A stretch of DNA of 64,000 nt from an uncultured Methanosarcinales archaeon (GCA_964485195.1 CAZAIK010000006.1:12720-76719); one strand, 5' to 3'. Shown: positions 19,850-60,951, numbered from the stretch's first letter. Made by a program: numbers and translations. The notes: a model not told the origin generated them from the sequence alone.

Positions 19850-19850
19850 A

Positions 19851-20561: not shown

Positions 20562-20563
20562 AA

Positions 20564-20947: not shown

Positions 20948-20948
20948 G

Positions 20949-22815: not shown

Positions 22816-22816
22816 C

Positions 22817-23769: not shown

Positions 23770-23770
23770 A

Positions 23771-25329: not shown

Positions 25330-25556
25330 GTTCAAGCGACTATAAAAAAGCCATGAATCAGCTAAACGCAAAGCCTGTAAAGGCAAAGAAGTACCTGAAG
25401 CACTGCTCCCCAAAAGAGAGGGCCACAGGAATAGCAAAGAAAAAGTGTTCCAGGTGCGGCAGAGTTGGGGGCCACGTTAAGAAGTATGGTCTTGATTTTT
25501 GCAGGCACTGCTTTAGGGAGATTGCACAGCAGATAGGATTCAAAAAATTCAGGTAA
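25326..25556 (+). CDS. rps14: 30S ribosomal protein S14 (uS14, Zn-type)
   Basis: 76 aa. CSRCGR...CRHCFRE zinc ribbon; canonical slot. Confidence 0.75.
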
Positions 25557-25948: not shown

Positions 25949-25949
25949 A

Positions 25950-26474: not shown

Positions 26475-26475
26475 A

Positions 26476-27063
26476 ATGAAAAAACTACTGGAACTAAAAC
26501 AGGGAATGAAGAGGAAAAAACCGGATTTCACCAGAACAGACTCCCACAAGAAGGGCAAGCTGAAAGAAGGTTGGAGAAGGCCAAAAGGCCATCAGAACAA
26601 GATAAGGCTTCATAGGAAAGGATACAAGGACAAAGTGAACGCGGGCTACAGGACACCCCAACTTGTTAGATATCTGGAAAAAACCGGGCTGAAAAAGGTT
26701 ATAGTGAGCAATATAAAAGACCTGGCCAGCATAGACATCAAAACTGAAGGTGCCCATATCGCCGGAGTAGGATTGAGGAAAAAGATGGACATCATAAGGA
26801 AGGCGCTGGATAATAAAATACCAATTCTCAACATAAAGTATCCTGAAGCTTTTTTGAGAAAAGCGGAGGAAGGAATAAAACAGAGGAAAGAAAGGAAAAA
26901 GAGCAAGGAAATGAAAAGGAAGGAGAAAGAGAAAACCAAGGGGGAGAAAAAGAAGAGAGTGGAAGAAAAAGAGAAAGAAAAGACAGAGGAAGAGTTCAGC
27001 GAAGAAGAGAAGGAAAAACAGGAAAGGAGAGAAAAGGAAAAATTGCTGATTAAGAAACAGTAA
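26476..27063 (+). CDS. rpl32e: 50S ribosomal protein L32e with long KE-rich C-terminal extension
   Basis: 195 aa. N-terminal L32e core (GWRRPKGHQNKIRLHRKGY); about 70-aa K/E repeat tail. Confidence 0.8.
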   Translation: MKKLLELKQGMKRKKPDFTRTDSHKKGKLKEGWRRPKGHQNKIRLHRKGYKDKVNAGYRTPQLVRYLEKTGLKKVIVSNIKDLASIDIKTEGAHIAGVGLRKKMDIIRKALDNKIPILNIKYPEAFLRKAEEGIKQRKERKKSKEMKRKEKEKTKGEKKKRVEEKEKEKTEEEFSEEEKEKQERREKEKLLIKKQ

Positions 27064-27064
27064 A

Positions 27065-27595
27065 ATGAGACTTAAAACACAGAAAAGGATAGCTGCAGAC
27101 GTCATGAAGTGCTCGCCGAAACGGGTGAAATTTGACGGCACCAAGCTCAAGGAGATAAAAGAGGCCATAACAAAAGCAGATATCAGGGGGATGATAATTG
27201 ACAAATTCATCCAGAAGGAAAGGAAAAAAGGAATCAGCAAAAGCCGAGCAAGGCTCATCAGGGAACAAAAAGTGAAAGGAAGAAGAAAAGGGCACGGCTC
27301 AAGAAAAGGGAAAAAGACAGCAAGAACCCCAAAGAAAACAGAGTGGATGAACAGGGTAAGGCTTCAGAGGGATGTTATCAGCGAGTTAAAGCAGAAAGGT
27401 AAGATTGGGAATGATGTTTACTGGGACTTATACAGAAAAATAAAGGGAGGCTTTTTCAGAAGCAAAAGGCACCTTCAGATTTTCATAATTGAAAAGAAAT
27501 TGAGCAGGGAAGTCAAAAAACCAGAGCCTGTGAAGAAGGCTGAAAGGCCAAGAAAGAAGGCTAAAAAAACAACTAAAAAGAAAAGCGAAAGATGA
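27065..27595 (+). CDS. rpl19e: 50S ribosomal protein L19e
   Basis: 176 aa. MRLKTQKRIAADV...KRVKFD signature; K-rich tail. Confidence 0.8.
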   Translation: MRLKTQKRIAADVMKCSPKRVKFDGTKLKEIKEAITKADIRGMIIDKFIQKERKKGISKSRARLIREQKVKGRRKGHGSRKGKKTARTPKKTEWMNRVRLQRDVISELKQKGKIGNDVYWDLYRKIKGGFFRSKRHLQIFIIEKKLSREVKKPEPVKKAERPRKKAKKTTKKKSER

Positions 27596-28116
27596 ACACA
27601 AGATATACTGTGAAATTCAGAAGAAGAAGGGAAGGAAAGACAGACTATCACAGGAGGGTAAAGCTCCTGACTTCCCAAAAAAGCCTGTTGGTATTCAGAA
27701 AGCTTTCCAGAACATTAATCGGGCAGATAACGCAGTTCAACCCAAAAGGAGACAAGATATTGGTTAATGTCAACTCTAAAGAGCTTGAAAAATACGGCTG
27801 GAAGCTTAGCAAGAAAAACACTCCCGCTGCATACTTGACCGGATTTTTAATCGCAAAGAAGGCAGGAAAATCCAAAGCAGGCAATCTTATCGCAGATTTC
27901 GGAATAATCAATCCCACCAAAGGCTCGGTCAAGTACGCCTTTTTGAAGGGAGCATCAGATGGAGGGCTGAATGTCATGCATTCCCCTGACTTTTTCCCAG
28001 AAGAAAACAGGATAAAAGGAGAGCACATCGCTTCATATTCCTCAAATCCAGAATACAAAAACATAACAAGAATTTTCGAGGAAGTCAAAAGCAAGATAGA
28101 GAGTCAAAATGGTTGA
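27592..28116 (+). CDS. rpl18: 50S ribosomal protein L18 (uL18)
   Basis: 174 aa. RRRREGKTDYHRR N-terminal signature. Confidence 0.85.
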   Translation: MNTRYTVKFRRRREGKTDYHRRVKLLTSQKSLLVFRKLSRTLIGQITQFNPKGDKILVNVNSKELEKYGWKLSKKNTPAAYLTGFLIAKKAGKSKAGNLIADFGIINPTKGSVKYAFLKGASDGGLNVMHSPDFFPEENRIKGEHIASYSSNPEYKNITRIFEEVKSKIESQNG

Positions 28117-28915
28117 AGAAGAGAAAAAAGAAGAAATGGAAAAAGAAGGAGAAACAGAAGAAAACGAGGAAGTAATGGAAGGGGCCGAGGAGATTGCAAA
28201 AGAAAAAAAGCCTCAGCAGGTGATTGAATTTGCTGAATGGGACCCTAAAACAGAAATAGGCAGAAAAGTAAAGAATGGGGAGATTGTTAATATTAAGGAA
28301 ATATTGGATGAGGGCAAGATAATAAAGGAAACCCAGATAGTTGACATCCTTCTTCCGGACCTGGAGACAGACCTTCTCCTTATAGGCCAGGCCAAAGGAA
28401 AATTCGGGGGAGGAAAGAGAAGGATATTCAGGCAGACCCAAAAGAAAACAAGAGAGGGTAACAAGCCACATTTCATGACCCTTGCTGTTGCAGGAAACAA
28501 GGATGGATATGTGGGAGTGGGTGCAGGCAAGTCGAAAGAGACTGTTCCTGCCAGGGAAAAGGCCTACAGAAGGGCCAAGCTTAATATGCTCAAAATAAGA
28601 AGAGGTTGCGGCTCATGGCAGTGCGGATGCAAAACCGGGCATTCCATACCTTTCAGGGTGAAGGGCAAGTGCGGGTCTGTAGAAATAGAATTGATACCTG
28701 CCCCCAAAGGAACAGGGCTAAAAGTTGAGAAGGAATGCCAAAAAATCCTGAAACTGGCAGGCATAACAGATGTTTGGTCAAAAACCCGGGGAAAAACAAC
28801 CACAAAGATCAACGTAATGTACGCCTGCCTGGACGCTCTTAAAAATCTGATGAAAACAAAAGTAAAACCTGAACACTATGAAGTTTTAGGAATGGTAGAG
28901 GGGATTCAAAAATGA
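28109..28915 (+). CDS. rps5: 30S ribosomal protein S5 (uS5), acidic N-terminal extension
   Basis: 268 aa. FMTLAVAGNKDGYVGVGAGKSKE signature. Confidence 0.85.
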   Translation: MVEEEKKEEMEKEGETEENEEVMEGAEEIAKEKKPQQVIEFAEWDPKTEIGRKVKNGEIVNIKEILDEGKIIKETQIVDILLPDLETDLLLIGQAKGKFGGGKRRIFRQTQKKTREGNKPHFMTLAVAGNKDGYVGVGAGKSKETVPAREKAYRRAKLNMLKIRRGCGSWQCGCKTGHSIPFRVKGKCGSVEIELIPAPKGTGLKVEKECQKILKLAGITDVWSKTRGKTTTKINVMYACLDALKNLMKTKVKPEHYEVLGMVEGIQK

Positions 28916-29265
28916 AGCTTGCAGTGATACGGATAAAAGGGGATATCGGACTTAATGAGGATGCAAAGAAAACTTTTCGCATGCTTAATTTAAACAAGAA
29001 ATTCGCCTGTTCTGTGCTGGAAGACAACCCGGTAAACAAAGGGATGATAAGAAAGATAAAAGATTTCAGCACCTATGGGAATGTTAGTGAAGAAACACTC
29101 GCGCTTCTCAAGAAGAAAGAAAAAGAAGGCCAGAAGTGTTATAATCTCCACCCTCCAGTAGGCGGTTTTGAAAGGAAAGGAACCAAGAAGTCCTTTAACG
29201 CGGGAGGCGCTCTAGGAGAAAGGGGAGACAAAATAAATGACCTTATCAAGAGGATGCTCAAATGA
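28912..29265 (+). CDS. rpl30: 50S ribosomal protein L30 (uL30)
   Basis: 117 aa. MKLAVIRIKGDIGLNEDAKKTFRMLNL signature. Confidence 0.8.
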   Translation: MKLAVIRIKGDIGLNEDAKKTFRMLNLNKKFACSVLEDNPVNKGMIRKIKDFSTYGNVSEETLALLKKKEKEGQKCYNLHPPVGGFERKGTKKSFNAGGALGERGDKINDLIKRMLK

Positions 29266-29720
29266 CAGTGAATAAAAGAAAGAAAAACAGCAGGCACAGG
29301 GGAAGCTGGACCCATGGCTGGGGCGAAAAGAAAAAGCACAGAGGTGCCGGAAGCCGAGGGGGCAGGGGAAATGCCGGCTCAGGGAAAAAAGGCGATTCCA
29401 AGAAACCCTCCATATGGAAGAATCCCTCATATTTCGGAAAGAAAGGTTTCAAAAGCAAGAATTTCAGGAAGTTTGTGGGGCAGAACACAGGCTACTTAGA
29501 GAAAGGCCTGGATAAATTACTGGAGAAAAACCTGATTTCAAAAGAAAATGATGTTTACTCAGTTGATTCAAGAAAATTAGGCTTTAACAAGCTCTTGGGC
29601 AGGGGGAAGGTAAAGCGTAAGTTTAAAATAGAAGTGCCCTTTGCTTCCAAAAAGGCCATACAGGTAATAAAAGAGGCTGGCGGTTCAGTGAGCTGTGAAA
29701 AGGCAGAACAAAAAGAATAA
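29262..29720 (+). CDS. rpl15: 50S ribosomal protein L15 (uL15)
   Basis: 152 aa. G/R-rich N-terminus RHRGSWTHGWG...GRGNAGSG. Confidence 0.85.
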   Translation: MTVNKRKKNSRHRGSWTHGWGEKKKHRGAGSRGGRGNAGSGKKGDSKKPSIWKNPSYFGKKGFKSKNFRKFVGQNTGYLEKGLDKLLEKNLISKENDVYSVDSRKLGFNKLLGRGKVKRKFKIEVPFASKKAIQVIKEAGGSVSCEKAEQKE

Positions 29721-29731
29721 AGGGGTGTTGA

Positions 29732-31114
29732 ATGGCATTTAACTGGTTATACAATTTTCCAGAAGTAATATCTCCTTCTCAGAAAAGGCTTGCTTTCAAG
29801 GAGAAACTCAAGTGGACATTAATCATTCTTATCCTTTTTTTCGTTCTGGGACTGGTGCCTCTCTTCGGACTTGGAACAAACGCCCTGCAGCAGTTTGAAT
29901 ATCTGTCAGCCATACTGGCAGCAGAGTTCGGCTCCATAATCTCTTTGGGAATTGGTCCAATCGTGACTGCATCCATTGTTCTTCAATTACTGAATGGTTC
30001 AGGAATGCTGAGGTTTGACCTGACCAGTGAGGAGGGCAAGAAGAAGTTTCACGGGGTTCAGAAGTGGCTGTCTGTATTTTTTGTGGTATTTGAAGCAATA
30101 GTGTATGTTTTTATGGGAGGGCTTGCTCCTCCTGAGGCTTTGGCAGGAACCCCCACATATACGTCGCTCCAGTTTCTCCTGATATTCCAGCTGTTCCTGG
30201 GGGGTATTATGATAATGCTGATGGATGATGTCATAAACAAGTGGGGCTTTGGGTCCGGAGTTTCATTGTTCATCGCAGCAGGGGTTTCCAAGCAAATAAT
30301 TGTCAGGGCATTCAACCCCCTGCCTTCACCCACAAACCCTGAGGTGGCTGCAGGGGCAATCCCGGCGCTTGTGCAGCATCTTTCTGCTGGGGAGCCCACC
30401 GCTGCCCTGCTTTTGCTGGCAGGCCTGATAGCCACGGCAGCTGTGTTCGCGCTTGCGGTTTTTGGCCAGGCTATGAAGGTGGAAATACCCTTATCCTTTG
30501 GAAGGGTGAGAGGGTATGGTATAAGATGGCCCTTGCAGTTCATATATACCTCAAACATACCTGTAATACTAATTTCAGCGCTTATAGCCAATGTGCAGCT
30601 TTGGGCAAGGCTTTTCCAGAACTGGGGATATCCCCTGCTCGGAACTTTCGTGGGGAACACCCCTGCCACTGGTATTGTCTCTTGGCTTTTTGCACCCAAT
30701 ATAGTAGAAAAGATTATCACTCAAAGCCTGACTCTCGCTAATGTCGGACAGGCAGCGTTCTACATGCTTTTCCTTGTGGCAGGAAGCGTAGTTTTCAGCA
30801 TCTTCTGGGTACAGACATCTGGAATGGACGCCCGCTCCCAGGCAAGGAATATTATGTCTTCAGGCCTGCAGATCCCCGGATTCAGAAGGGATGAAAGGGT
30901 TTTGGAGCACATCCTAAAAAGATATATAGGACCTCTCACAATAATGGGTGCAATACTGGTGGGTATCCTTGCAGGAATAGCAGATTTGTCAGGCGCCCTG
31001 GCTCACGGCACAAGCATACTGCTTGCTGTTATGATCATATACAAGCTTTATGAAGAGATAGCAACGCAGCATATGTATGACATGAACCCTATGCTAAGAA
31101 AATTTATGGAATAA
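29732..31114 (+). CDS. secY: preprotein translocase subunit SecY
   Basis: 460 aa, 10 TM. Canonical end of the cluster; GIGPIVTASIVLQLL and plug region present. Confidence 0.9.
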   Translation: MAFNWLYNFPEVISPSQKRLAFKEKLKWTLIILILFFVLGLVPLFGLGTNALQQFEYLSAILAAEFGSIISLGIGPIVTASIVLQLLNGSGMLRFDLTSEEGKKKFHGVQKWLSVFFVVFEAIVYVFMGGLAPPEALAGTPTYTSLQFLLIFQLFLGGIMIMLMDDVINKWGFGSGVSLFIAAGVSKQIIVRAFNPLPSPTNPEVAAGAIPALVQHLSAGEPTAALLLLAGLIATAAVFALAVFGQAMKVEIPLSFGRVRGYGIRWPLQFIYTSNIPVILISALIANVQLWARLFQNWGYPLLGTFVGNTPATGIVSWLFAPNIVEKIITQSLTLANVGQAAFYMLFLVAGSVVFSIFWVQTSGMDARSQARNIMSSGLQIPGFRRDERVLEHILKRYIGPLTIMGAILVGILAGIADLSGALAHGTSILLAVMIIYKLYEEIATQHMYDMNPMLRKFME

Positions 31115-31128
31115 AGATTTGAATAAAA

Positions 31129-31857
31129 ATGGCAATATTTGAAACAATACTTTCACTGCATCCCCTGATTGTAATATTGGGTTTTTCTTTTCTGGTCACT
31201 CTGATATCCATATTCGCTTACAAGTTCTTCACAAACCAAAGGGAGATGAAGCAGCTGAAGATGGATTTGAAAGACCATCAAAAGGAAATGAAAAAGCACA
31301 GGGGGGACCAGAAGAAATTAATGGAGTTGCAGAAAAGAAGTATGGAGAAAAACCTTCAATATATGAAGCATTCATTCAGGCCAATGATATTTACTTTCCT
31401 TCCCATAATACTGCTTTTTGGATGGCTTCACGCCAATCTTGCCTACGAGCCCTTGCAGCCGGGAGAGCCCTTTAACATTAATGTCCACGCAACGCAGGGG
31501 TTTAACCTGAGCATACTCCCCCAGGAAGGGATAAATATTCTGAACAGCACGGTTGCTGAAGAGCAAACAATTTACACAGTGGAGGGGGAAAAGGGCACCT
31601 ATACCCTGTTCATAGAAGTGCCTGGTGAAGAGGAAAAAACTGCCGAATTTGTAATAACAAACAAGCAGGAATATGAAGGTCCTGAGTTCAAATTCAAAAG
31701 TGACGTAGTGAAATTAGTGGAATTCAGTAATGAAAAAATGAAGCCTTTCGGCGAGAAATTCAATATTTTCGGCTATCACCCCGGATGGTTCATAGTTTAT
31801 CTTGTTTCAGCAATAGTTTTCAATTCCATTCTGAGGAAGGTGTTTAAGATTTATTAA
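31129..31857 (+). CDS. DUF106-family membrane protein (archaeal YidC/Oxa1/EMC3-like insertase candidate) with extra C-terminal domain
   Basis: 242 aa. TM1, K-rich coiled-coil (KQLKMDLKDHQKEMKKHRGDQKKLMELQKR), TM2 and a C-terminal TM. Occupies the conserved post-secY slot. Confidence 0.5.
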   Translation: MAIFETILSLHPLIVILGFSFLVTLISIFAYKFFTNQREMKQLKMDLKDHQKEMKKHRGDQKKLMELQKRSMEKNLQYMKHSFRPMIFTFLPIILLFGWLHANLAYEPLQPGEPFNINVHATQGFNLSILPQEGINILNSTVAEEQTIYTVEGEKGTYTLFIEVPGEEEKTAEFVITNKQEYEGPEFKFKSDVVKLVEFSNEKMKPFGEKFNIFGYHPGWFIVYLVSAIVFNSILRKVFKIY

Positions 31858-31882
31858 TTAAAAAAAGTTTTATCAAAAATTT

Positions 31883-32167
31883 TTATCCTATGCTGAAAAC
31901 GGGCTCTGTAATGTCCTCGGATTTGCACCTGGGACACTTGGTTGGCCTGGTGAATTTCTGCCTGTCCTTGAAAACAAACCCGCACGAGTTGCACTCCGCC
32001 CATTTTCGCTTGAACTTCTTGTGCTGGCTCTTCACAGTTTGGGAGATATGATACAAGTCTTTTGTAATGTCCCTGACATCAACCCCAAAATGATCTGCAA
32101 GCTCTTTTAAAGACCTTGCCCCCTCCTCCAGCATTTCAATCATCTCTTTCCTGCGAGTCTGGATCAT
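31883..32167 (-). CDS. HTH + zinc-ribbon transcriptional regulator (COG3357-like)
   Basis: 94 aa. N-terminal HTH then CNSCG...CPRC. Confidence 0.5.
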   Translation of the reverse strand: MIQTRRKEMIEMLEEGARSLKELADHFGVDVRDITKDLYHISQTVKSQHKKFKRKWAECNSCGFVFKDRQKFTRPTKCPRCKSEDITEPVFSIG

Positions 32168-36120: not shown

Positions 36121-36741
36121 ATGAAAAAAACATTAACATTATTGGCAGTTCTGCTTCTGGCATCATTCGTGCTGGCAGGATGCGGAGAGAGAAGCGTAGT
36201 GGAGCAGACTGCCTCAGGAGGAGAGGCAATGCAGACGGGCGGAGATGATACTGAAACGGCTGATCCTGCAAGTGAGACTATTTCAGACGACGGACCCGAT
36301 ATTTCAGCGCTTAAAGGCGACGGGCTTGAATGCCTAAGGCCAGGGGTGAGGGTATGCCTTCCTGTGAATTATGCAACAGCTGACGTTGGAGACACTGTAG
36401 GGTTCGCATTCGGAACCATAAATCAGTTTCCTGACACCAAGAAATTTGCCATAAAGCTGAAGTTTGTAAGGACCCAGCAGTCCCTGGGAGAGCTGGCCAT
36501 AGAAACCGACAAGGACTATATGGGAAGGTGGCTGAATGTCAATGATTTAGACACATATTATGAGCTTGACCCTAAGGAGAAGTTTTCCAATCCCATACTG
36601 GTGAAGGTAATGGATGAGGTAGCTGAAGGAAAACCAACGCAGCCAGGGGCTTATGTGTTTGAAGTCCAGGCTCAAACCTTTGAAGACGGTTTCTATGATG
36701 ACTATGGCGGGGCTCAGCAGATTACTGTGAGAGTCCAGTAA
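36121..36741 (+). CDS. secreted lipoprotein (hypothetical), acidic
   Basis: 206 aa. Signal peptide MKKTLTLLAVLLLASFVLAGC with lipobox LAGC. Confidence 0.55.
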   Translation: MKKTLTLLAVLLLASFVLAGCGERSVVEQTASGGEAMQTGGDDTETADPASETISDDGPDISALKGDGLECLRPGVRVCLPVNYATADVGDTVGFAFGTINQFPDTKKFAIKLKFVRTQQSLGELAIETDKDYMGRWLNVNDLDTYYELDPKEKFSNPILVKVMDEVAEGKPTQPGAYVFEVQAQTFEDGFYDDYGGAQQITVRVQ

Positions 36742-43781: not shown

Positions 43782-44735
43782 ATGAATGTAATCTGGACTG
43801 AAAAATACCGACCCAAGAACTTCAGTGATGTTCTGGGCCAGGAGCACGTAGTAAGCAAGGTTGAGGCCTTTGTAAAACAAAAAAATATGCCCCATCTTCT
43901 TTTTGTAGGGCCTGCGGGTGTTGGAAAAACCTCCTTGGCATTGGTCATAGCGAAGCAATTTTTTGGAGAGGGCTGGAGAAACAATTTTCTTGAGCTTAAT
44001 GCTTCGGATGAGAGGGGAATTGATGTCATACGCGTAAAAGTGAAAGATTTCGCAAGGACCAGGGCGATAGGGGACGTGCCTTTCAAGATAATATACCTGG
44101 ACGAATGCGACGCGCTGACCAGGGATGCCCAGCAGGCTTTGAGAAGGACTATGGAAAACTACACTCAGACCTGCCGTTTTATACTCTCTGCCAACTACAG
44201 TAGCAAACTTATAGACCCAATACAGTCAAGATGCGCAATCTTCAGGTTCAGGCCCCTTGAAAAAGAGCATATAGGCAAGATAATAGAGAGGATAACCAAG
44301 GAAGAGGGGCTTGAGGTGGAAAAGGCTGCAGAGGACGCCTTATTCGCTGTTTCAGGAGGAGATTGCAGGCGGGTGGAAAACATTATGCAAAGCTGCACAG
44401 CAATATCCAAGAAAATAACCGAGGATCTCGTGTTTTCCATCTCCTCAATGGCCAAGCCAAAAGAAATACTTAACGTGCTTAACTCAGCGTGGGAAGGAAA
44501 ATTTGTTGAGGCAAGAAAGGGATTATTGAATATTATGCTTAACTATGGACTGTCAGGAGCTGACGCCATACGCCAGATTCAGAAAGAGATTCTGGAAATG
44601 GACATAGATAACAGGGAAAAAATGCTGTTAATTGAAAAATGCGGGGAGGCAGAGTTCAGGGTTAGCGAGGGAAGCGACTCTTTCATCCAGCTGGAAGCTT
44701 TCTTGGCCAATGTGGGAAGGCTAGGAAATGAATGA
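43782..44735 (+). CDS. rfcS: replication factor C small subunit
   Basis: Internal start MNVIWTEKYRPKNF; Walker A GPAGVGKTS, DEAD-like YLDECDAL, SRC-like arginine RFRP. Confidence 0.85.
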   Translation: MNVIWTEKYRPKNFSDVLGQEHVVSKVEAFVKQKNMPHLLFVGPAGVGKTSLALVIAKQFFGEGWRNNFLELNASDERGIDVIRVKVKDFARTRAIGDVPFKIIYLDECDALTRDAQQALRRTMENYTQTCRFILSANYSSKLIDPIQSRCAIFRFRPLEKEHIGKIIERITKEEGLEVEKAAEDALFAVSGGDCRRVENIMQSCTAISKKITEDLVFSISSMAKPKEILNVLNSAWEGKFVEARKGLLNIMLNYGLSGADAIRQIQKEILEMDIDNREKMLLIEKCGEAEFRVSEGSDSFIQLEAFLANVGRLGNE

Positions 44736-45588
44736 CCACCTAATATTAAAAGAGGCGAAAACTTTAGTTGAGGATTTGGAAGAGGCTAAAAAGAGAATAC
44801 AGATTATTTCCAAAGAGAACATTCTTATCAAAAAGATCCTGGCTGAAAAGAACAAGGCAATTCTTGAGCAACAGGAAAAAATAGAGAAGTTCACCAGGCT
44901 TTTGGTCCTTTCTGACAAGATGCTCTCTGAAATGAAGGAAAAATTATACAACAAAGAGGAAAAATCAAAAAGGCTTGAGACAAAACTAAACAACATCAGG
45001 GAAAGCCAGGAGGATTATCTTTCAGAAATTAAGGAAGCTGTCAAGTCCCGCGACGACAAAATAAAAAAACTTCTTGAAGAGAAGGAAGAAGCTGAAAAAA
45101 GGCTCGTGGCCCTTCTTGATGCCTATGAAAAAACCAAGGAAAAGGCAAGGAAAATTTCAGAAGAAGGGGATGGGAATGCTAAAGAACTGCGCGGCCTGCT
45201 GGAAGAAAAAGAAAGGCAAATCAGTGACTTGAGAAAAGTTTTGTCCGAGAGCAGCAAAAGATTAGGACATCTGGAAGAGCTTAACAAGGAGCTGACTGCC
45301 CAGTATGAACAGGAAAAAGAAGTACTGGACAGGATGATTAAGAGAAGAGACAGTGAAATAAACAAATTAAAGAAATCCTCAAGATTGTCAGAAGATAAAA
45401 AAGAAAAGCAGCAAGAGCACGTCAAGATAAGTGTTCCTAAAGAGTTTGATCCTTTTGAAAGGAAAGAGATAGAATCAATGATTAAGATGGCATTGTCTCA
45501 CGGGGACAATATCAGAGAAATAAAGGAATCCCTGCTCAGCGCAGGGTATGACGGGGAAAAAGTAAATGAAATGATCAGACGTGTTTGA
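44728..45588 (+). CDS. coiled-coil protein (hypothetical), co-transcribed with rfcS
   Basis: 286 aa, K/E-rich heptad coiled coil; 8-nt overlap with rfcS stop. Confidence 0.5.
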   Translation: MNDHLILKEAKTLVEDLEEAKKRIQIISKENILIKKILAEKNKAILEQQEKIEKFTRLLVLSDKMLSEMKEKLYNKEEKSKRLETKLNNIRESQEDYLSEIKEAVKSRDDKIKKLLEEKEEAEKRLVALLDAYEKTKEKARKISEEGDGNAKELRGLLEEKERQISDLRKVLSESSKRLGHLEELNKELTAQYEQEKEVLDRMIKRRDSEINKLKKSSRLSEDKKEKQQEHVKISVPKEFDPFERKEIESMIKMALSHGDNIREIKESLLSAGYDGEKVNEMIRRV

Positions 45589-46519
45589 CCGTCACCTGCT
45601 TTGTAATGAACTGGTCGTAATCATATTCTAAGGTTGCTGTAACAGTCTTAACAAAGTCGCCCTGCCCTCCTGTGGGCTGGGTGCAGGATATCTGCCTTTC
45701 CCCTCCATACAGCGCAATGTAACCTTCAGAGCCTGTCTTCGGCTGTCCTTCCAGGGTTTGCAGTCCTGTGCACTGAAGTCCGCTCATACTCGTGTCTATG
45801 CTCAGGAAGAGCCTGTCTCTTTTCTGTATGGTATCTTCGCATTGTGAGCCAGGCTCAAATATCTTTCCTGTTCCAACGTGCCTTATGGTGAAGGTCAGCA
45901 GAATAGTGTCTGTTCCTCCCTGGGATTCCCTCATTGAGGTTATATGCACAGGCGCTCCTGAATTAGCCACTGCCTTTGCCTCATTTACCTTGCACACAGA
46001 AGCGTCGGAGCTGGAAAGGTCTTCCTTAACGCACATATTGGTGCTGACCTTGGTCCCGTATTTATAGCAGGCATCTGCCTTCATTGTTGTGGTTATTGGA
46101 CCGAAAAGCGTTCTCTGAAAGTTCAGCCCGGGAAAATCCACAACTAGGGTGTCCCCTTCTATAATCTCACCAGCAGGCCCTCTCCTTGTGGGAAGCATTC
46201 CCTGTGGTGGGTTTTTCTCCAGGGCTGCTGCAGATACTCCATAATCTGAAGGGTCTATCCCAGATGTTTTTACCAAAATGTCAGAGCCGGAAGGTATTTC
46301 CCACTCCCCCACATTCTTTATCCTGACATTGATGCTAAATGGAAACTGCGCCCCGTCGAATATCTCTGAAGGGGGCGCGTCCTCAACAAACTCCATGGCC
46401 AGGCCTTTAGTCCCGCCAACAAAAGTTGGGCCAACGCTTGGCCCTTCCTCCTGGGGGGCGCACGCAATTACAAGTGTAACAATCATCAAATAAATTCCAA
46501 ATAACAGGATTTTTCTCAT
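45575..46519 (-). CDS. secreted Cys-containing lipoprotein, paralog family member 1
   Basis: 314 aa. Signal plus lipobox VIAC. Shares ACY.Y.TK....C, QGAP..ITS, L(E/D)Y(D/G)Y motifs with the next two genes. Confidence 0.6.
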   Translation of the reverse strand: MRKILLFGIYLMIVTLVIACAPQEEGPSVGPTFVGGTKGLAMEFVEDAPPSEIFDGAQFPFSINVRIKNVGEWEIPSGSDILVKTSGIDPSDYGVSAAALEKNPPQGMLPTRRGPAGEIIEGDTLVVDFPGLNFQRTLFGPITTTMKADACYKYGTKVSTNMCVKEDLSSSDASVCKVNEAKAVANSGAPVHITSMRESQGGTDTILLTFTIRHVGTGKIFEPGSQCEDTIQKRDRLFLSIDTSMSGLQCTGLQTLEGQPKTGSEGYIALYGGERQISCTQPTGGQGDFVKTVTATLEYDYDQFITKQVTVKHV

Positions 46520-46527
46520 TTTATCAC

Positions 46528-47439
46528 CTAGGATATTTTTTTGATTTGTATACTTTTCCTTTTTGAATCCATATAGCCGTATTCCAAATTAGCGTCAAGT
46601 GTTGTTGTATATGCCAGGTTCCCCGGCACGTTGAAAACGCAGGTTATCAATGCCTGGCCGTTTACCAGGCGAACAGGGCTTGCGGGAAGGCACTGGCCTG
46701 CTGCTCCTCCCAGTTTGAAAGGGGCATAATGTATTTTGTCAAACTTATCATAAGTAACTTCTGTGCACATTGGAGAGTAGCCGTTCTCCATAACCTGGCC
46801 GCCTCCCACGTTTGAGATTCTAATCTTGAATATAGCCCTCCCTCTTAAGGATTCCTGCTGGACAGAAGTTATGGCGACAGGAGCTCCCTGGCCGCCTCCC
46901 ACAGTTGCTCCGTGGGGAGTGCAGGCTCTCTGAACTACAGCGCTGTAAGGGTCGGGGTCCACGCAAACAGGCAGGCTTGCTTTAGTGCTGTAATCGTAAC
47001 AGGCTGTTGCCTGCAAAGTAGCGGGATACACGTCTATGTCAGGAGGCATACTAACATCCAAAGTGCCGTATGTGGGAAATTGTATCTGGGTGTACCCTCC
47101 TTCGGGGTTTACAGGGCTCTTGCCCTCCAAGGAGCCTATTACATGCACTGGATTTCCAACCCGGATAATGTTAGGGTCAAACCCTGATAGATAAAAGTAA
47201 ACCCCTGTTGTTTCTGATCCCAGGTTTTGCACTTCCAGGACAATGTTGTGGCCAGTATCCTGCTGGCCTGCTGTGTAAATTACAGCAGGAGGATGGTTCG
47301 GCAGGAAGTTAAAGAAAATGCCCTGCGTGCCCCTGTGAGTTTCTGTAACCACTGTTTCCGGCTCCCTCTCTGTGGGAGCGCACGATGCAAGTAGAATGGA
47401 TAAAGCAGAAATTATCACAAAAAGCTTGAAATACCTCAT
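46528..47439 (-). CDS. secreted Cys-containing lipoprotein, paralog family member 2
   Basis: 303 aa. Lipobox LASC; motifs ATACYDYSTKASLPVCVDPDP, QGAPVAITSV, LEYGY. Confidence 0.6.
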   Translation of the reverse strand: MRYFKLFVIISALSILLASCAPTEREPETVVTETHRGTQGIFFNFLPNHPPAVIYTAGQQDTGHNIVLEVQNLGSETTGVYFYLSGFDPNIIRVGNPVHVIGSLEGKSPVNPEGGYTQIQFPTYGTLDVSMPPDIDVYPATLQATACYDYSTKASLPVCVDPDPYSAVVQRACTPHGATVGGGQGAPVAITSVQQESLRGRAIFKIRISNVGGGQVMENGYSPMCTEVTYDKFDKIHYAPFKLGGAAGQCLPASPVRLVNGQALITCVFNVPGNLAYTTTLDANLEYGYMDSKRKSIQIKKIS

Positions 47440-47482
47440 TTTGCCTTTTTAAAGTGATACTGTGTATTTAAATTTTTTCTTT

Positions 47483-48454
47483 TTATATTGAAACAGTCCT
47501 GAATACTGTTGTTTTTGCCGAGGAACTTTGAGTATAGCCATAATCAAGGCTTACAGATACAACTGTTGAATAAGCAGTTGCTTCCTCTGTGAACGGGCTA
47601 CCATAAACACACCTTATTAAGTCATCATCTCCAGTTAAAACCAGCGGGAACGGCACGCATTTTAAATCTTCAGTCCCCCCCAGCTTGACAGTGACGGCCC
47701 CACTTTCAATTTTGTTCCAGGGAGGGGAGCCTTTCAGACATTCATTGGTTTTTCCTGCTGTATAAACCAGCCCTCCTCCTTTGTTTTGAAGGTGTAGTGT
47801 GAGCTGAAGCTTTTTTCCATTTCTTTGGGAAATCATTTTGGGCTCCACCTTTGTTATTGCAAGTGGAGCTCCCTGGCTTTCAAGGTTAACTGTCTGCATC
47901 TGGCAGGGCTTGTCCTGGGTTTCCTGAAGAGGGGCAGGGTCTATGCACAGGGGAACATTGGCTCTTGTCTGGTAGTCATAGCAGGCTGTTGCTGTGAATG
48001 TGGCTGGATAGCTTTCCCTCTGGGGGCCTAGTCTCAAAGCTTCAAAGCTCTTGGAGAAGACAGCCCTTTCACCAAGAGGGTTGTTGGGCTTCCTGCCTTC
48101 AAGCTCAAATGTGAAGGAATTATCCGAACTCCCTAACCGCTCATTGTATTTCAGCCAGGGGCTGTCAAGGTTTCTTACCGCGGTGCTGTCATACGCTAAA
48201 ATCATTCCGCCGCTTTCTATGTCTGCAGCCCCCTTGTTTTCCAGGATTAGTGTGATGTCAAAAATCTCCCCTGTGTATGTCTCATTGGGAGGGCTGTTGG
48301 GGCTGAATCTAAAAATCAAGGAGTCTGTTCCTTTCCTGAAGTCCTCTGCAGTCAATTCTTCAGGCCTGTTGCTTGGCCCTCCCATCAGGTCGCAGGCGCT
48401 GAACATAAAAAGAAGTGCAAGCGCCAGGCAAAAAAACAATGATTTGTGCTTCAT
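47483..48454 (-). CDS. secreted Cys-containing lipoprotein, paralog family member 3
   Basis: 323 aa. Lipobox FSAC; motifs ATACYDYQTRANVPLCIDPAP, QGAPLAITKV, LDYGY. Confidence 0.6.
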   Translation of the reverse strand: MKHKSLFFCLALALLFMFSACDLMGGPSNRPEELTAEDFRKGTDSLIFRFSPNSPPNETYTGEIFDITLILENKGAADIESGGMILAYDSTAVRNLDSPWLKYNERLGSSDNSFTFELEGRKPNNPLGERAVFSKSFEALRLGPQRESYPATFTATACYDYQTRANVPLCIDPAPLQETQDKPCQMQTVNLESQGAPLAITKVEPKMISQRNGKKLQLTLHLQNKGGGLVYTAGKTNECLKGSPPWNKIESGAVTVKLGGTEDLKCVPFPLVLTGDDDLIRCVYGSPFTEEATAYSTVVSVSLDYGYTQSSSAKTTVFRTVSI

Positions 48455-48494: not shown

Positions 48495-50435
48495 TTAGGA
48501 CGTAGCTGACCCTTCTTCCCCTCCTGCCTGTGCCGGGGGGCTTCTCCTTATGCTGATAGTGGCAGATTCCTCCAGGGCAAAATCATACTCTGCCCTTGCA
48601 AAGAAGGACTTTGGTGCAAGGGGAACCCTTCTTCCGTCACTCGGGTCCCGCAGGGCCAGATCAATATCCTCAGCCACGTAAGTGCAGGTTATGGTGTAAT
48701 ATTCCACCTCCTGCATCCTTTGGTTTATTCTTTCAACTTCAAAGCTATATGCATTTGTCCCTTCCTTGTACTCTTCATTAGATGTTCTAAAACTAACGGG
48801 GTTGAATGAATTGTCGCAACTGGACAGCTTCACTCCCTTCGGAACATATGCGTAAAGCTTATTGAATTTGGAAATCTCCCCCTTCCACCTCGGCTTCACA
48901 GTTATCCCTATCACAGGGGCAGGGTATGCCCCTTCCTCGTTCGCTGATATTAACGGAACCGGGTCGTTTATGCCTATGCCCAATTCTATGGGGCCCTGGG
49001 TGTATTCCGCTGTTGGGCTTCTTTCATCAAAGGGCACGTTATAAGCATCGTAAACATCTTTGTTAGAGGGATATTCAATTATGTTTTGCCTGTCTGAAAG
49101 ATGCGCAGTAATCCTTGACTCTGTCTGGAAATTAAACTTGGCAATGAAGTCTATCTGCTTTTGAGATACAGTACCCCTCTCTATGCCATCTTCAAAAATA
49201 CAGGGAATTGTTTCCCTGCTAATCTTTTCATCAACAACAAATTGAGCAGGATTCGTCTTTCCTTCAATCTCTGTGTCGTGAACCTTGCACTCTGTCTCTA
49301 TGGTTATTTCAGCCCCTTCTGCATAGGATGCAACTTCAAGGTCTGCCCACAGGTAAATCTGCTCGCCTTCATAAAAAACCTGGTCCTTGGGCCTAGGCCC
49401 GAATTCTGTTATGTAAACCCCCACTGGCTCCCTTGCCTGCTCAACCTCCCCGCCGTAATACTGGCCTCCTGTGGCTATCTGTATCTGCCTCTCAACCAGG
49501 CTTCCAACACCCTCCCTGAATGTCGTGGGAAATTCCAGCACGTTTTGCCAGGCATTTGCGACCATTTCCCTGCCTTCGGGGGAGAGCGTGGTTACTTTTG
49601 CTATGGGGTCCACTGCGCTTACTCCCGCAGCGCTCAGGGAGAAAAAGAAAAAGGAGAATAATGTTATAATTATTGCTATCATGTATATGCCTCTTCCTAA
49701 GCTGTAAAGCAATCCCCTGGCGCTTTTGTCTATGTCCTGGCTCATTACTATGTAAATCAGCACCAGCGAGGGGGTGAATGCAACTATCAGCACTGTGAGG
49801 GCTGACTGGGTTAAGGCTGAAAATTCTGGGACAATATTTGCAAGGGGCTGCAGGAAAGCATAAGGGGGGTTTTGCTGCACTATTGTATTAAGCAAAAGTG
49901 TTGGCAATCCGTAATCAAGACAGGCAATAAGCACTGAAAGGCCTATGGGCACCCCTATGAATATCAGCAGGAAAAGTATCACAATCTCTGCAGCTATCCT
50001 GAAAGAGTAAGCTTCATAGCTTGTGAAAAAATTGAAAATTTGTATTACCAGGAACAAGAGGCCGGCAAGCCCTATGAGGTTAACATTCCTGTAAACACGA
50101 TGCCCTCCTCTGAATGCCCAGCCCAATAACGCCCCTCCGACGCCCCATCCAACCTTTCCAATCCTGCTGAAGGGGGAAGCAACTTTGCCTGCTGCTTTTC
50201 CGGCAGGCATCTTGGCAACTTCCGAAGCCTTCTTTCCCACCTTGCCTGCCGCTTCGCTCACTGGCATTGATGCTACCTGCTTGGCCTTTCTTCCGGCTCC
50301 GTAAAAAGTGGGGGTGTATTCCTGGGCTGCCTTTTTTATTTTCTCCTTCCATTTCTTTTCCTTAAGCATCTCTGCCTCTGCCTCTTCCCTCTGCTTCTGC
50401 TCTCCAGCCATTGGGTTTAAAGGTTCGTCAGCCAT
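48495..50435 (-). CDS. large polytopic membrane protein with repetitive K/A-rich cytoplasmic N-terminus and about 350-aa extracytoplasmic C-terminal domain
   Basis: 646 aa. N-terminal repeats (AGKVGKKASEVAKMPAGKAAGKVAS), about 6 TM helices at residues about 110-330, then a soluble domain rich in E/Y/T. Confidence 0.6.
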   Translation of the reverse strand: MADEPLNPMAGEQKQREEAEAEMLKEKKWKEKIKKAAQEYTPTFYGAGRKAKQVASMPVSEAAGKVGKKASEVAKMPAGKAAGKVASPFSRIGKVGWGVGGALLGWAFRGGHRVYRNVNLIGLAGLLFLVIQIFNFFTSYEAYSFRIAAEIVILFLLIFIGVPIGLSVLIACLDYGLPTLLLNTIVQQNPPYAFLQPLANIVPEFSALTQSALTVLIVAFTPSLVLIYIVMSQDIDKSARGLLYSLGRGIYMIAIIITLFSFFFFSLSAAGVSAVDPIAKVTTLSPEGREMVANAWQNVLEFPTTFREGVGSLVERQIQIATGGQYYGGEVEQAREPVGVYITEFGPRPKDQVFYEGEQIYLWADLEVASYAEGAEITIETECKVHDTEIEGKTNPAQFVVDEKISRETIPCIFEDGIERGTVSQKQIDFIAKFNFQTESRITAHLSDRQNIIEYPSNKDVYDAYNVPFDERSPTAEYTQGPIELGIGINDPVPLISANEEGAYPAPVIGITVKPRWKGEISKFNKLYAYVPKGVKLSSCDNSFNPVSFRTSNEEYKEGTNAYSFEVERINQRMQEVEYYTITCTYVAEDIDLALRDPSDGRRVPLAPKSFFARAEYDFALEESATISIRRSPPAQAGGEEGSATS

Positions 50436-50484: not shown

Positions 50485-51696
50485 TCATTCAAGCTTTACT
50501 GCCAGGTCAACAACTTCAAATGTTGAGACCGGCTCTATCTTTATGGCATTAGTGCCTTCTTTTGCAAAGCTGTTGATATTTCTTGTGTACTCCCTTTCTC
50601 TTGTTTCAAAGCCTGTTTGTATTCCATTAATGAACAAGTCGGCATTTTTTCTCGTCGCTGAGTCTGTGAATAATAATTCCAGGGTTAAATTATTCCCTCC
50701 TGAAGATATGGTATTAAACTGTGCACTGTTCAAATCGAAATAATAAGTAAAAGGGACTGGCTCTTTCAATTGAAGCCTTATCAGGATATTGTCCATAAGA
50801 TAGAAAGCTTCAGAAGGCTCCTTGACTTCTGTGCTGAAAGTTATGGTGTTCTCCCCGCTTGAAAGGATGTTTGTGGATATTGGCTGGCTTACTATGTCCC
50901 CGCACACAGGTATTTGCGAATAAACATTCCTGTTGTTAACCTCCACATCCAGTTTACCCAAGTCTGCCTTATCCCCGCAATCCACGTAAAATCTCAGCCT
51001 TGCCGTCTCCAGGTTATTGTGTTCTGTTGAGGATATTATGAAGCTGCTCTGGGATTTTTTCCCTGAAATGTCTGTTATGTCAGCCACAAGCTTTAGGTTT
51101 GAAAGGTCATAATAACTGGTTTTCCAGAAAGCAAACCCCACAGAGCCTGCCTGTATGATAAGGGTGTTGCTTCCCTTGAGAAGGTCAGAGGGCAGCCTCA
51201 CCGCAAGGTTGGGGTTTTCCTGCTCTTTTTCATAAATCCTCTGCCCATTAAGCTCAAGTATCAGCTCTCCTTCATGATCATCTATGTTTACAGAAAAAAG
51301 GGTGTTTTTTGTGTTCTCAACATCCCCTAATGAAAAGGTAAGATTATAGGCCTGGCTTGAAAACCAGCTGTTTTTCACAGTTATGGCCTCTGCTGTCTTC
51401 AGGGTAACTGCCTCAGTAGAGACGAACAAGGTTAGGGGAGGTATTGACTTTTCAAACTCTGTTGCAGAAATATGCTCCAACAATCCGGGATGCTCCAGAA
51501 GAAGGATTCCTTCAGAAATCTCTCCATTGGCTTCGCCGTTTCCTTCCCCATCAGTTTCATTGGTCAGATTCAAAAGTTCCTGCCTTTCTGAAGGTGGCAC
51601 AAAAAGTATGTACAGGATTATCAAGCCGCCGATAATTGCAACAAGAGTTGCCGCTTTGGTGCCGTCCTGGGCTTTTTTACTGGGGCGTAAGACCAT
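50485..51696 (-). CDS. signal-anchored extracellular protein, possible class III (prepilin-like) signal peptide
   Basis: Internal Met MVLRPSKKAQDGTKA|ATLVAIIGGLIILYILFV then about 370-aa N/S/T-rich domain. The track ORF extends to 51990 but that extension overlaps pelota antisense. TATA-like TTTATATATA 20-30 nt upstream of this ATG. Confidence 0.55.
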   Translation of the reverse strand: MVLRPSKKAQDGTKAATLVAIIGGLIILYILFVPPSERQELLNLTNETDGEGNGEANGEISEGILLLEHPGLLEHISATEFEKSIPPLTLFVSTEAVTLKTAEAITVKNSWFSSQAYNLTFSLGDVENTKNTLFSVNIDDHEGELILELNGQRIYEKEQENPNLAVRLPSDLLKGSNTLIIQAGSVGFAFWKTSYYDLSNLKLVADITDISGKKSQSSFIISSTEHNNLETARLRFYVDCGDKADLGKLDVEVNNRNVYSQIPVCGDIVSQPISTNILSSGENTITFSTEVKEPSEAFYLMDNILIRLQLKEPVPFTYYFDLNSAQFNTISSGGNNLTLELLFTDSATRKNADLFINGIQTGFETREREYTRNINSFAKEGTNAIKIEPVSTFEVVDLAVKLE

Positions 51697-52955: not shown

Positions 52956-53768
52956 TTGGAAAAGATGATTGTAAATGATGATTTTTTAGCAACACTGAGA
53001 AGGTATTTCTCTCTCAATCTTTATGAGGTTAAGATTTGGTCTGCTCTGCTTTCCAGGGGTGTTTCCACTGCTGGTGAGCTTTCTGACATTGCCAACGTTC
53101 CCAGGTCCAGGAGTTATGACGTTCTGGAAAGCCTGGAGAAAAAGGGGTTTGCCGTGACAAAAATAGGCAAGCCAATCAAGTACATAGCAGTTCCTCCGAC
53201 AGAGGTAATTGAAAGGGTAAAGAAAAATATGAAGAAGGAGGCTGAAACAAAGGTATCCAGGCTCGAGGAGCTAAAGGACTCGGAAATGCTAACCGAGCTT
53301 AACGCGCTACACAATCAAGGTATGGAACTGGTGGAGCCGGCAGACCTTTCAGGAAGCCTTAAAGGCAGGCATAACCTATACAACCATTTGGAGTCTACGA
53401 TAAAGAATGCCGAAAAGTCAGTGACCATAATGACAACAACACAGGGATTCCTGAGAAAGGTTGAGGGGCTAAAGCCAATCTTTGAGAAGCTCAAGAAAAG
53501 AGGCGTCAAGATAAGGATTGCAGCTCCGATTACCAAGGAGTGTTCATCGGCACTAAAAGACATCTCAGGAATTGCAGAGGTCAAGAATGCCGACGCCAAG
53601 GCGCGATTCACTGTGGTGGACGGAAAACAGCTGGTGTTCATGGTGATGGATGACTCGGAAGTGCACCCAACCTATGATGTGGGGATATGGGTGAACACCC
53701 CATTCTTCGCTTCCGCAGTTGAGAACCTCTTTGAGGGAGCCTGGAAGGGAATGAGGGGCGCAAAGTAA
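52956..53768 (+). CDS. TrmB-family transcriptional regulator (paralog A)
   Basis: 270 aa. wHTH IWSALLSRGVSTAGELSDIANVPRSRSYDVLESLEKKGF identical to paralog B at 60136..60951. Confidence 0.7.
   Translation: MEKMIVNDDFLATLRRYFSLNLYEVKIWSALLSRGVSTAGELSDIANVPRSRSYDVLESLEKKGFAVTKIGKPIKYIAVPPTEVIERVKKNMKKEAETKVSRLEELKDSEMLTELNALHNQGMELVEPADLSGSLKGRHNLYNHLESTIKNAEKSVTIMTTTQGFLRKVEGLKPIFEKLKKRGVKIRIAAPITKECSSALKDISGIAEVKNADAKARFTVVDGKQLVFMVMDDSEVHPTYDVGIWVNTPFFASAVENLFEGAWKGMRGAK
53048..53143. repeat. 96-bp segment perfectly identical (inverted) to about 60755-60850
   Basis: GCTTTCCAGGGGTGTTTCCACTGCTGGTGAGCTTTCTGACATTGCCAACGTTCCCAGGTCCAGGAGTTATGACGTTCTGGAAAGCCTGGAGAAAAA is present here and as reverse complement in the second TrmB paralog. 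Confidence 0.6.
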
Positions 53769-60135: not shown

Positions 60136-60951
60136 TTACTTCAGGGTTTTCCAGGCCTTTTCAAATAGGGCATTAATAGAAGATGAGAGAAAAGGGGAGT
60201 TTATCCATACTCCGGAATCGTATGTGGGGTGAACTTGAGAATCATCTGAAATCATAAAGGTTGTGTGTTTTCCATCTATTACCACAAACCTTCCCTTAAT
60301 TTCGTCCGAGGTCCTGATTTCTGCCACACCTTTGAGCTCCTTTTCTATCCCTTGGTATTTTGAGTCTTCAGGTATTATTATCTTTATCTTCACGCCTTTG
60401 TTTTTGGCCTTTAAGAGGGATTTTTTAAGGGACTCTGATTTTCTTTTTATACCTTCATTTGAAGTGACCATTAAAACAGATTTTTCACTGTCCTTTATTG
60501 CGGAATCAAGGTGATTATATAAGTTGTGGCGGCCTTTAATGGCTCCTGAGATGTCCACGGGATCTATTAAATCCATGCCCTGTGAATGTAGGTTTTTTAG
60601 CTCTTCTATTGTCTTTGAGCTTTTTATTTTTTCAAGGGACGCAACCTGCTCTTTCGTGTCTTTTTCAACCCTCTTTTTGACTCTCTCAATAACCTCTGAT
60701 GGTTGAACAGCGATGTACTTGATTGGCTTACCGACCTTCATAATTATAAATCCTTTTTTCTCCAGGCTTTCCAGAACGTCATAACTCCTGGACCTGGGAA
60801 CGTTGGCAATGTCAGAAAGCTCACCAGCAGTGGAAACACCCCTGGAAAGCAAAGCTACCCATAACCTAGCTTCATAACTGTTAAGACCCAAATCCTTAAG
60901 TTTCTTTAAAAACTCCTGTTTGATAAGCATTTTGTCCTTTTTCAACGTCAA
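60136..60951 (-). CDS. TrmB-family transcriptional regulator (paralog B)
   Basis: 271 aa. Same architecture as 52956..53768; identical 36-aa HTH. Confidence 0.7.
   Translation of the reverse strand: MTLKKDKMLIKQEFLKKLKDLGLNSYEARLWVALLSRGVSTAGELSDIANVPRSRSYDVLESLEKKGFIIMKVGKPIKYIAVQPSEVIERVKKRVEKDTKEQVASLEKIKSSKTIEELKNLHSQGMDLIDPVDISGAIKGRHNLYNHLDSAIKDSEKSVLMVTSNEGIKRKSESLKKSLLKAKNKGVKIKIIIPEDSKYQGIEKELKGVAEIRTSDEIKGRFVVIDGKHTTFMISDDSQVHPTYDSGVWINSPFLSSSINALFEKAWKTLK
60755..60850. repeat. inverted copy of the 96-bp identical segment at 53048-53143
   Basis: Reverse complement matches paralog A exactly; flanks diverge. Confidence 0.6.

Follow-up and report, generated by a model that had tools for sequence, protein, structure and literature searches.

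The window analysed here is a stretch of 64,000 nucleotides from an assembly deposited as an uncultured Methanosarcinales archaeon (GCA_964485195.1 CAZAIK010000006.1:12720-76719), and the feature under study is a group of three adjacent genes for putative surface lipoproteins, named A, B and C. As an original prediction made from the sequence alone had it, these are open reading frames (ORFs) of 314, 303 and 323 aa, all on the minus strand. The first and fastest-evolving paralogue, C (positions 47483 to 48454, minus strand, 323 aa), is followed by the middle paralogue B (46528 to 47439, minus strand, 303 aa) and by A (45575 to 46519, minus strand, 314 aa), the last gene of the cluster. Upstream of C, on the same strand, lie the genes of a polytopic membrane protein (Mem) and of a protein with a putative N-terminal anchor (Pil). 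All five were delimited by ORF calling. Promoters and terminators were scanned for with a sigma-70 model, which is uninformative for an archaeon.

Lipoproteins A, B and C

The N-termini of A, B and C consist of a basic n-region and a hydrophobic h-region (MRKILLFGIYLMIVTLVIAC, MRYFKLFVIISALSILLASC and MKHKSLFFCLALALLFMFSAC), and those of their orthologues are alike. Archaeal lipobox lipoproteins carry a Sec or Tat signal with the consensus [L/V/I][A/S/T/V/I][G/A/S]C, and their thioether-archaeol lipidation depends on AliA/AliB (PMC12462473). This strict consensus is matched by VIAC in A (Cys20, codon at 46460 to 46462) and LASC in B (Cys20, 47380 to 47382), whereas the lipobox-like FSAC of C (Cys21, 48392 to 48394) has a Phe at -3, beyond the strict [L/V/I]; all three codons, on the minus strand, were placed by translation and family alignment. 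A Sec-type signal and a lipobox, as predicted, are therefore found on all three, with the non-strict residue in C. When 130 family members from 54 loci (L numbers designate loci of related genomes) were aligned with MAFFT, the lipobox column held a Cys in 122, and in the remaining 8 the Cys was offset in the alignment, by two residues in L016 and L022. A, B and C thus resemble archaeal lipobox lipoproteins in the basic and hydrophobic regions, in the position of the Cys at 20-21 and in its family-wide column, and differ from them in a mature domain that belongs to no described family, in the Phe of C and in one lineage with a shifted G-G-Q-K-C box. Judged by their sequences, the three would count as archaeal lipoproteins, and lipidation is predicted.

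In the related genomes with the shifted boxes (L016:7028-9930 and L022:310-3223), all three lipoproteins are affected (LIGGQKC, LIAGQAC and ISGYTRC), the Cys lying two residues later, after Gln-Lys/Ala or Thr-Arg. Such a coordinated change hints at an altered lipoprotein-processing specificity in these organisms.

In BLASTP comparisons, B and C were 31% identical (E 3e-31), A and B 27% (E 2e-18) and A and C 24% (E 1e-8). The three proteins are therefore paralogues whose similarity is far beyond chance, and the identity of about 30% predicted for this family corresponds to a measured range of 24-31%. The motifs A(D/T)ACY(K/D)Y.T, GAP..IT and L(E/D)Y(D/G)Y occupy aligned positions in all three as proposed, whereas N.GGG, also proposed as shared, is found only in B and C, and A carries HVGTG in its place. 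No further members of the family were found in the 64-kb window. The most conserved paralogue is A, the one retained in reduced loci (see Discussion), which matches the family profile with an E of 4e-119 and has orthologues that are 35-40% identical across distant genomes; positional orthologues of B were recovered with E values of 1e-44 to 1e-47.

Cysteine framework and predicted fold

Downstream of the lipobox Cys, A has the framework cysteines C151, C163, C176, C227, C250 and C279, and B and C also have six. These residues were invariant in a 97-sequence alignment, each was kept in 127-130 of the 130 members from the 54 loci, and all six were present in 364 of 387 sequences aligned with a hidden Markov model, the exceptions being mostly fragments or local alignment shifts. 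The fixed six-cysteine framework that had been described for the three genes is thus a property of the whole family rather than of these genes alone. In three sequences (B of L018, B of L045 and C of L002), C151 and C227 are lost jointly while the other four are kept, and these losses represent at least two independent events. This joint loss points to a C151-C227 disulfide; correlated loss, and not model distances, suggests this pair as one of three proposed disulfides, and the bonds would lie outside the cell.

The AlphaFold2 model of A, made with the 97-sequence alignment, had a mean pLDDT (predicted local distance difference test) of 94.8 and a pTM (predicted template modelling score) of 0.87. 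It consists of a signal helix, a short linker and an all-beta part in two halves, each of which closes with an unusually long strand of 23-24 residues (142-164 and 289-312). The two all-beta halves of this model agree with the expectation of two beta domains with three disulfides, and the co-loss fits one of the pairs, C151-C227. No significant internal duplication was detected between the lipoprotein halves (P 0.097). Foldseek searches of the PDB and BFVD with the A model gave only generic tandem beta-sandwich matches with template modelling (TM) scores of at most 0.25, among them integrin legs, the AglB C-terminus, transglutaminase barrels, WxLIP and tail fibres. The scores against MSCRAMM adhesins were 0.09-0.15, and no MSCRAMM/SdrG or WxLIP structure reached a TM of 0.5.

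Size and distribution of the family

No family in Pfam or NCBIfam was matched by A, B or C even at E <= 1 (including CARDB, DUF11, fn3 and the Big types), a PDB sequence search with the lipoprotein profile gave no match below E 0.1, and PADLOC, PHROGs, Pfam and NCBIfam returned nothing for any of the five window proteins. No relatives were found in IMG/VR contigs either and, given this and the empty PADLOC and PHROGs searches, a viral or defence origin was rejected.

A profile search returned 111 homologues of about 300-330 aa, all hypothetical, and every organism-labelled one comes from metagenome-assembled genomes (MAGs) of Woesearchaeota or Nanoarchaeota. When 1.84 billion cluster representatives (clusters at 50% identity) were scanned with HMMER, 3,320 clusters passed a threshold of E <= 1e-3, and a threshold of E <= 1e-30 was passed by 1,114. 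Nearly all of their members are single-domain proteins of about 300-335 aa and a few have C-terminal extensions; in one A-type member of 1,612 aa, the lipoprotein module follows three ConA-like lectin domains. In the literature searched, neither this operon nor the lipoprotein family was found described. Among the protein families specific to Woese-/Pacearchaeota, a module of 51, most of them uncharacterised, has been reported (Castelle et al., PMC8204110), and the A/B/C-type families may belong to it.

Gene order and orthology

The neighbourhoods of distant homologues were examined together with 49 loci from GTDB species representatives; a locus counted as informative if at least 6.5 kb lay upstream of A, as was the case in 37. 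The five genes recur as a same-strand cluster between the divergent Pelota gene and the convergent gene of the RFC small subunit, in the order Pelota, Pil, Mem, C, B, A, RFC. The complete Pil-Mem-C-B-A order is present in 28 of the 37 informative loci, and Pil lies upstream of Mem in 30. One locus (L004) keeps the block Mem-C-B-A with Pil elsewhere, beside Pelota; another (L043) has four lipoprotein genes through duplication of A; and in a third, Pil and Mem are accompanied by two lipoprotein genes. The number of lipoprotein copies per locus ranges from 1 to 4. All genes lie on one strand, with median intergenic gaps of -4 to 48 nt across loci and gaps of 49, 40, 43 and 8 nt along Pil-Mem-C-B-A in the window.

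Gene position predicts orthology. For the 35 loci with three copies, the ten top-scoring BLAST matches in other genomes lay at the same gene position in 326 of 350 cases for C, 347 of 350 for B and 350 of 350 for A, that is, in 93-100%. Mean identity between orthologues, calculated by region, was 39-51% for A, 33-48% for B and 26-38% for C, and paralogues of one genome were 19-37% identical, below the orthologues in every structured region. As position corresponds to orthogroup and orthologues are closer than paralogues, the triplication is old and fixed, dating from before the divergence of the genomes, rather than a recent and labile expansion. Very probably, A, B and C are ancient and non-redundant members of a conserved envelope operon.

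The membrane protein Mem

The Mem gene (48495 to 50435, minus strand) encodes 646 aa with a Lys/Ala-rich, probably cytoplasmic N-terminal region, about five transmembrane helices and, at the C-terminus, an ectodomain (residues ~300-640) with conserved cysteines. Its orthologues have 500-1,160 aa and 3-8 transmembrane helices. In jackhmmer searches, 31 of 32 positional equivalents, the window's included, matched one another over a core corresponding to residues ~120-640, the one without a core match being that of L029. The N-terminal ~100 residues of the window's Mem form an imperfect Lys/Ala/Gly-rich repeat (QVASMPVSEAAGKVGKKASEVAKMPAGKAAGKVASPF); the N-terminal extensions of the orthologues range from ~10 to 436 residues, some of them with weak coiled-coil-type matches.

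Single-sequence hhalign comparisons of Mem or Pil with the lipoprotein profile were not significant. When the ectodomains of syntenic Mem orthologues were combined into a profile, only the comparison with the C type produced a signal (Prob 70%, P 3.9e-5, 173 columns), whereas reversed-column controls gave P >= 0.17; C is therefore the lipoprotein nearest to this ectodomain. The alignment pairs GP(V/I)..G with GAP..IT, N.W.G.I with N.G.G, and the Y.Y of the C-terminal strand with (E/D)Y(D/G)Y. A low-confidence model of the ectodomain, which drew on 3 sequences only because word-indexed homologue searches gave 2, then 1 matches, shows two strand-rich halves, each closed by a strand of ~20 residues, like the pattern in the model of A. 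The Mem ectodomain is a probable, not a proven, fourth and divergent copy of the lipoprotein module.

Beyond the core, the orthologues carry different C-terminal tails. Peptidoglycan hydrolase (PGH) domains scoring above the cut-off were Peptidase_M23 in 3 of 32 (L001:3120-6065, L004:3077-6064 and L029:3618-6374), an SLT lytic transglycosylase in one (L006:4714-7008) and a GH73 glucosaminidase in one (L016:5169-7031), and a Peptidase_M15_4 match in one further tail (L017:3904-6654) fell below it. Other tails contain a degenerate M23-like segment, FN3-type modules or cysteine-rich modules. At least three, possibly four, PGH classes thus appear from these sequences to have been acquired at the Mem C-terminus in different Woesearchaeal lineages. 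In the tail of the L001 protein, an SLT-like 'TETGG...GMMQI' segment was also spotted, by eye only, after the M23 domain.

The N-terminally anchored protein Pil

Pil (50485 to 51696, minus strand) is a protein of 403 aa when read from the Met of MVLRPSKKAQ; this start was set by the N-termini of the orthologues (~385-430 aa), the TTG-extended ORF overlapping Pelota. The conserved N-terminus comprises [KR][KR][GA]Q, a Gly/Ala spacer of 4-8 residues, a hydrophobic helix and then LPPxER, and the [KR][GA]Q motif was present in most of the 36 N-termini compared. This organisation resembles that of archaeal type IV pilin-like proteins without fitting their class III signal pattern, and no type-IV-filament ATPase or platform gene was found at the locus. 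The Pil N-terminus may be an uncleaved signal anchor. The remaining ~360 aa contain three repeats of a pattern like 'L.I.(L/I)NG...G.N.L.F', and 5 of 28 members faintly matched sugar-binding families of the jelly-roll type (Glyco_hydro_2_N, CBM-like and CBM_35). Profile comparison with hhalign revealed no relationship of Pil to the lipoproteins or to the Mem ectodomain, and a search of PDB sequences with the Pil profile gave nothing meaningful.

Evolutionary rates

Rates were compared as protein identity to L054, the closest relative with available DNA. The values were 81% for RFC, 80% for a PRC-barrel protein, 72% for B, 69% for A, 66% for a neighbouring M24 aminopeptidase, 48% for a neighbouring coiled-coil protein, 42% for C and 40% for Mem. 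The same ranking was obtained against three more distant genomes, in which Pil was 37-54% identical. A and B therefore evolve about as slowly as the housekeeping neighbours, whereas C and Mem are fast, and A, B and Pil look like core components under constraint. As the closest relative has only ~70% protein identity, synonymous sites are saturated and a formal dN/dS (nonsynonymous to synonymous rate) analysis would not be meaningful. The lipoprotein genes showed no gene-conversion-like similarity, and neither repeats nor phase-variation features were seen.

Other features of the window and of related loci

A 286-aa Lys/Glu-rich coiled-coil protein is encoded at 44728 to 45588 (plus strand); its gene begins before the stop of RFC and runs towards that of A, with which it shares 14 nt. 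The layout downstream of RFC is conserved, the protein having 297 aa in L054, and evolution of the protein is fast (48% against 81% for RFC). In L002 (8979-11534), the RFC small-subunit gene beside A encodes 851 aa with an intein that carries a LAGLIDADG endonuclease, and ORFs of 734-848 aa, compared by length only, occupy the RFC position in L007, L044 and L045.

Another predicted lipoprotein of 206 aa (MKKTLTLLAVLLLASFVLAGC), without a Pfam family, is encoded at 36121 to 36741 (plus strand), between a 324-aa ORF also without a family and FEN1. ORFs without a Pfam family also lie beside FEN1 in L054 (295-304 and 207 aa) and L003 (304 aa), the likeness being one of size only. Two TrmB-like regulators of 270 and 271 aa (52956 to 53768, plus strand, and 60136 to 60951, minus strand) share a near-identical N-terminal helix-turn-helix segment (LSRGVSTAGELSDIANVPRSRSYDVLESLEKKGF) and are paralogues ~7 kb apart on opposite strands. 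A strong plus-strand purine skew (AT and GC) extends over the ribosomal-protein cluster at ~17700 to 31900 (plus strand), which runs from L3 to SecY by way of S4e and S5. The whole 64 kb yielded no tRNA genes or Rfam families.

The lipoprotein family is also carried by 14 third-party annotation (TPA) MAGs titled 'uncultured Methanosarcinales archaeon' (L007, L008, L023, L024, L029, L031, L032, L037, L040, L041, L043-L045 and L047). Most of these loci with enough flanking sequence have the full Woesearchaeal-type synteny, and the taxonomic label looks wrong.

Discussion

Among known systems, the Csc/WxL operons of Firmicutes, which combine a membrane-anchored WxLIP protein (DUF916/DUF3324; PDB 9i1y) with paralogous WxL proteins, are similar in that an operon of paralogous beta-sandwich surface proteins includes a membrane-anchored component; their products are thought to form a glycan-associated surface complex. 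WxLIP ranked third and fifth among the Foldseek matches of A, although at noise level (TM 0.19-0.22, root mean square deviation ~20 A). The window proteins differ from that system in having no Pfam match to DUF916 or WxL and a lipobox instead of a C-terminal transmembrane or WxL anchor, and they belong to another domain of life. The likeness is therefore best described as an analogy and not as membership. Membrane-anchored modular PGHs, such as the Gram-positive conjugation proteins of the PrgK/TraG type and archaeal PGHs (PMC12352652), are comparable to those Mem orthologues that have M23, SLT, GH73 or M15 on the extracellular tail; large SLT proteins of Woese-/Pacearchaeota have also been described (fam00969, PMC8204110). 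The window's Mem, in contrast, has no PGH, and the published proteins either are far larger, with up to 3,000 aa, or are soluble enzymes with a modular build. A Mem-like core, with a transmembrane base and a lipoprotein-like ectodomain, linked to three lipoproteins was not found described in the literature searched. Overall, the balance tips slightly towards classing the locus as a lineage-specific operon for a surface complex of several subunits, which would be paralogous beta-sandwich proteins.

In the reading that we favour, each lipoprotein would be exported via Sec, anchored by a lipid at the lipobox cysteine and folded into a rigid, elongated all-beta module braced by three disulfides; AliA, the archaeal lipoprotein-lipidation enzyme, has been reported in DPANN (PMC12462473). 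Mem would contribute a fourth, divergent copy of the module as an ectodomain fixed on a membrane base of ~5 helices, and Pil would add an N-terminally anchored array of jelly-roll, carbohydrate-binding-like modules. A, B and Pil would then be the conserved core, and C and the Mem ectodomain the fast-evolving and presumably exposed parts. We lean, by a small degree, towards A, B and C being subunits of one physical complex, and the odds are a little better than even that such a surface complex would be specific to the Woesearchaeota/Nanoarchaeia lineage.

To our knowledge, Archaea have no murein of their own. In other lineages, the outward C-terminus of Mem would bear interchangeable modules, either PGHs of several classes or FN3, and these interchangeable tails suggest that the assembly acts where the archaeon meets bacterial cell-wall glycans. 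PGHs are prominent in Nanoarchaeota/Woesearchaeota, where bacterial partners have been suggested as their targets (PMC8204110, PMC9723730, PMC12352652). A role of the complex in cell-wall contact is nevertheless a tentative proposal that we hold to be rather doubtful. In its full form, the proposal is that Pil-Mem-C-B-A would be an undescribed Woesearchaeota machine for attaching to and breaching the walls of bacterial partners, a hetero-oligomer of four beta-module copies with a glycan-binding arm and a swappable tip (M23, SLT, GH73, possibly M15, or FN3), and we give it a probability of roughly 0.28.

Several observations weigh against the favoured reading. The homology between Mem and the lipoproteins is moderate, with P values of 0.005 against B and 0.02 against A, and the AlphaFold model of the Mem ectodomain has a pLDDT of 56. 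The Pil N-terminus departs from the standard class III signal pattern in that the Gly/Ala spacer precedes the helix. Reduced loci exist: B and A only, with unrelated genes upstream, in 4 of the 37 (L007, L008, L010 and L012), and Pil followed directly by an A-type lipoprotein, without Mem, B and C, in 2 of the 37 (such Pil+A loci are L048:7654-9942, L051:7651-9948 and, on a short contig, L050:2170-4434). Therefore, a fixed five-part stoichiometry is not universal, although the absent genes could lie elsewhere in those genomes. Finally, the window's Mem has no tail, PGH domain or other domain recognisable at the Pfam gathering score, so that the link to cell walls comes from ~6 of the 32 orthologues only.

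The original prediction took the three genes for tandem duplicates of an adhesin or receptor-binding lipoprotein under diversifying selection, a view weighed here in the form of independently acting copies with hypervariable loops on a fixed disulfide scaffold. The proteins are indeed predicted at the surface and share a conserved cysteine framework at only 24-31% identity, the copy number varies from 1 to 4 with A duplicated in L043, and C evolves faster than housekeeping genes, as this explanation would have it (42% against 81% for RFC). However, A (69%) and B (72%) do not, being conserved like the housekeeping neighbours (M24 66%, RFC 81%), which contradicts diversifying selection for these two and leaves it possible for C. 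Variable surface lipoproteins of the Mycoplasma Vlp/Vsa and Borrelia Vls/Vsp types, also tandem lipoprotein paralogues on the cell surface, are marked by recent duplication, gene conversion, repeats and rapid turnover, whereas A, B and C are ancient orthogroups in fixed order, two of them slow-evolving, and show neither gene-conversion-like similarity nor repeats or phase-variation features. The fixed order in 28 of 37 loci, the same-position matches of 93-100%, which make the duplication older than the divergence of the genomes, the closer identity of orthologues than of within-genome paralogues in all regions and the MSCRAMM TM scores of 0.09-0.15 all speak against it. As a picture of independent, diversifying copies, this explanation is already largely refuted for A and B, and we regard it as improbable overall; on an adhesin or receptor-binding function as such the results are neutral, the matches to known adhesin structures being at noise level.

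A general S-layer-like or pseudo-periplasmic scaffold tiling the cell, without contact with a specific partner and with the PGH or FN3 tails as opportunistic decorations, would agree with the frequency of the cluster in relatives, its place among RFC, Pelota, PheRS and the ribosomal protein cluster, the good conservation of A, B and Pil, the rigid beta-rich module with disulfides predicted for A and the absence of a hydrolase domain from the window's Mem. An S-layer, however, usually consists of one protein or two rather than five (PMC5744192), and the independent gain of at least three PGH classes on the same C-terminus (M23, SLT and glucosaminidase, plus the sub-threshold M15_4) is hard to explain without cell-wall contact; we consider this scaffold rather unlikely. 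The lipoproteins could also be functionally unrelated to Mem and Pil, as independent enzymes or solute-binding proteins whose order is kept by genomic inertia in small genomes. No interaction evidence links the five products, a point that also counts against the favoured complex, and the flanking housekeeping genes are syntenic too, so that conserved order alone is weaker evidence in these genomes. Against such independence stand the single strand with minimal or overlapping gaps, the joint relocation of Mem-C-B-A in L004 without Pelota and Pil, the apparent homology of the Mem ectodomain to the lipoproteins and the failure of Pfam, NCBIfam, PDB sequence and fold searches to reveal any catalytic or ligand-binding family, and we find it quite improbable.

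Few uncultivated archaea are as widespread as Woesearchaeota and their relatives, which presumably live on other cells that may be bacterial; we know of no molecular apparatus for such contacts. The lipoproteins form a large family (~3,300 clusters) with a confidently predicted beta fold, to which nothing in the PDB or BFVD comes close, and the result contributes to research on archaeal lipoproteins, a field opened only recently. At minimum, the operon would be a core envelope component of these organisms; as a five-gene surface operon that is conserved throughout the lineage, with repeated gain of PGHs on its membrane subunit, it may represent a concrete and testable candidate for the contact apparatus.

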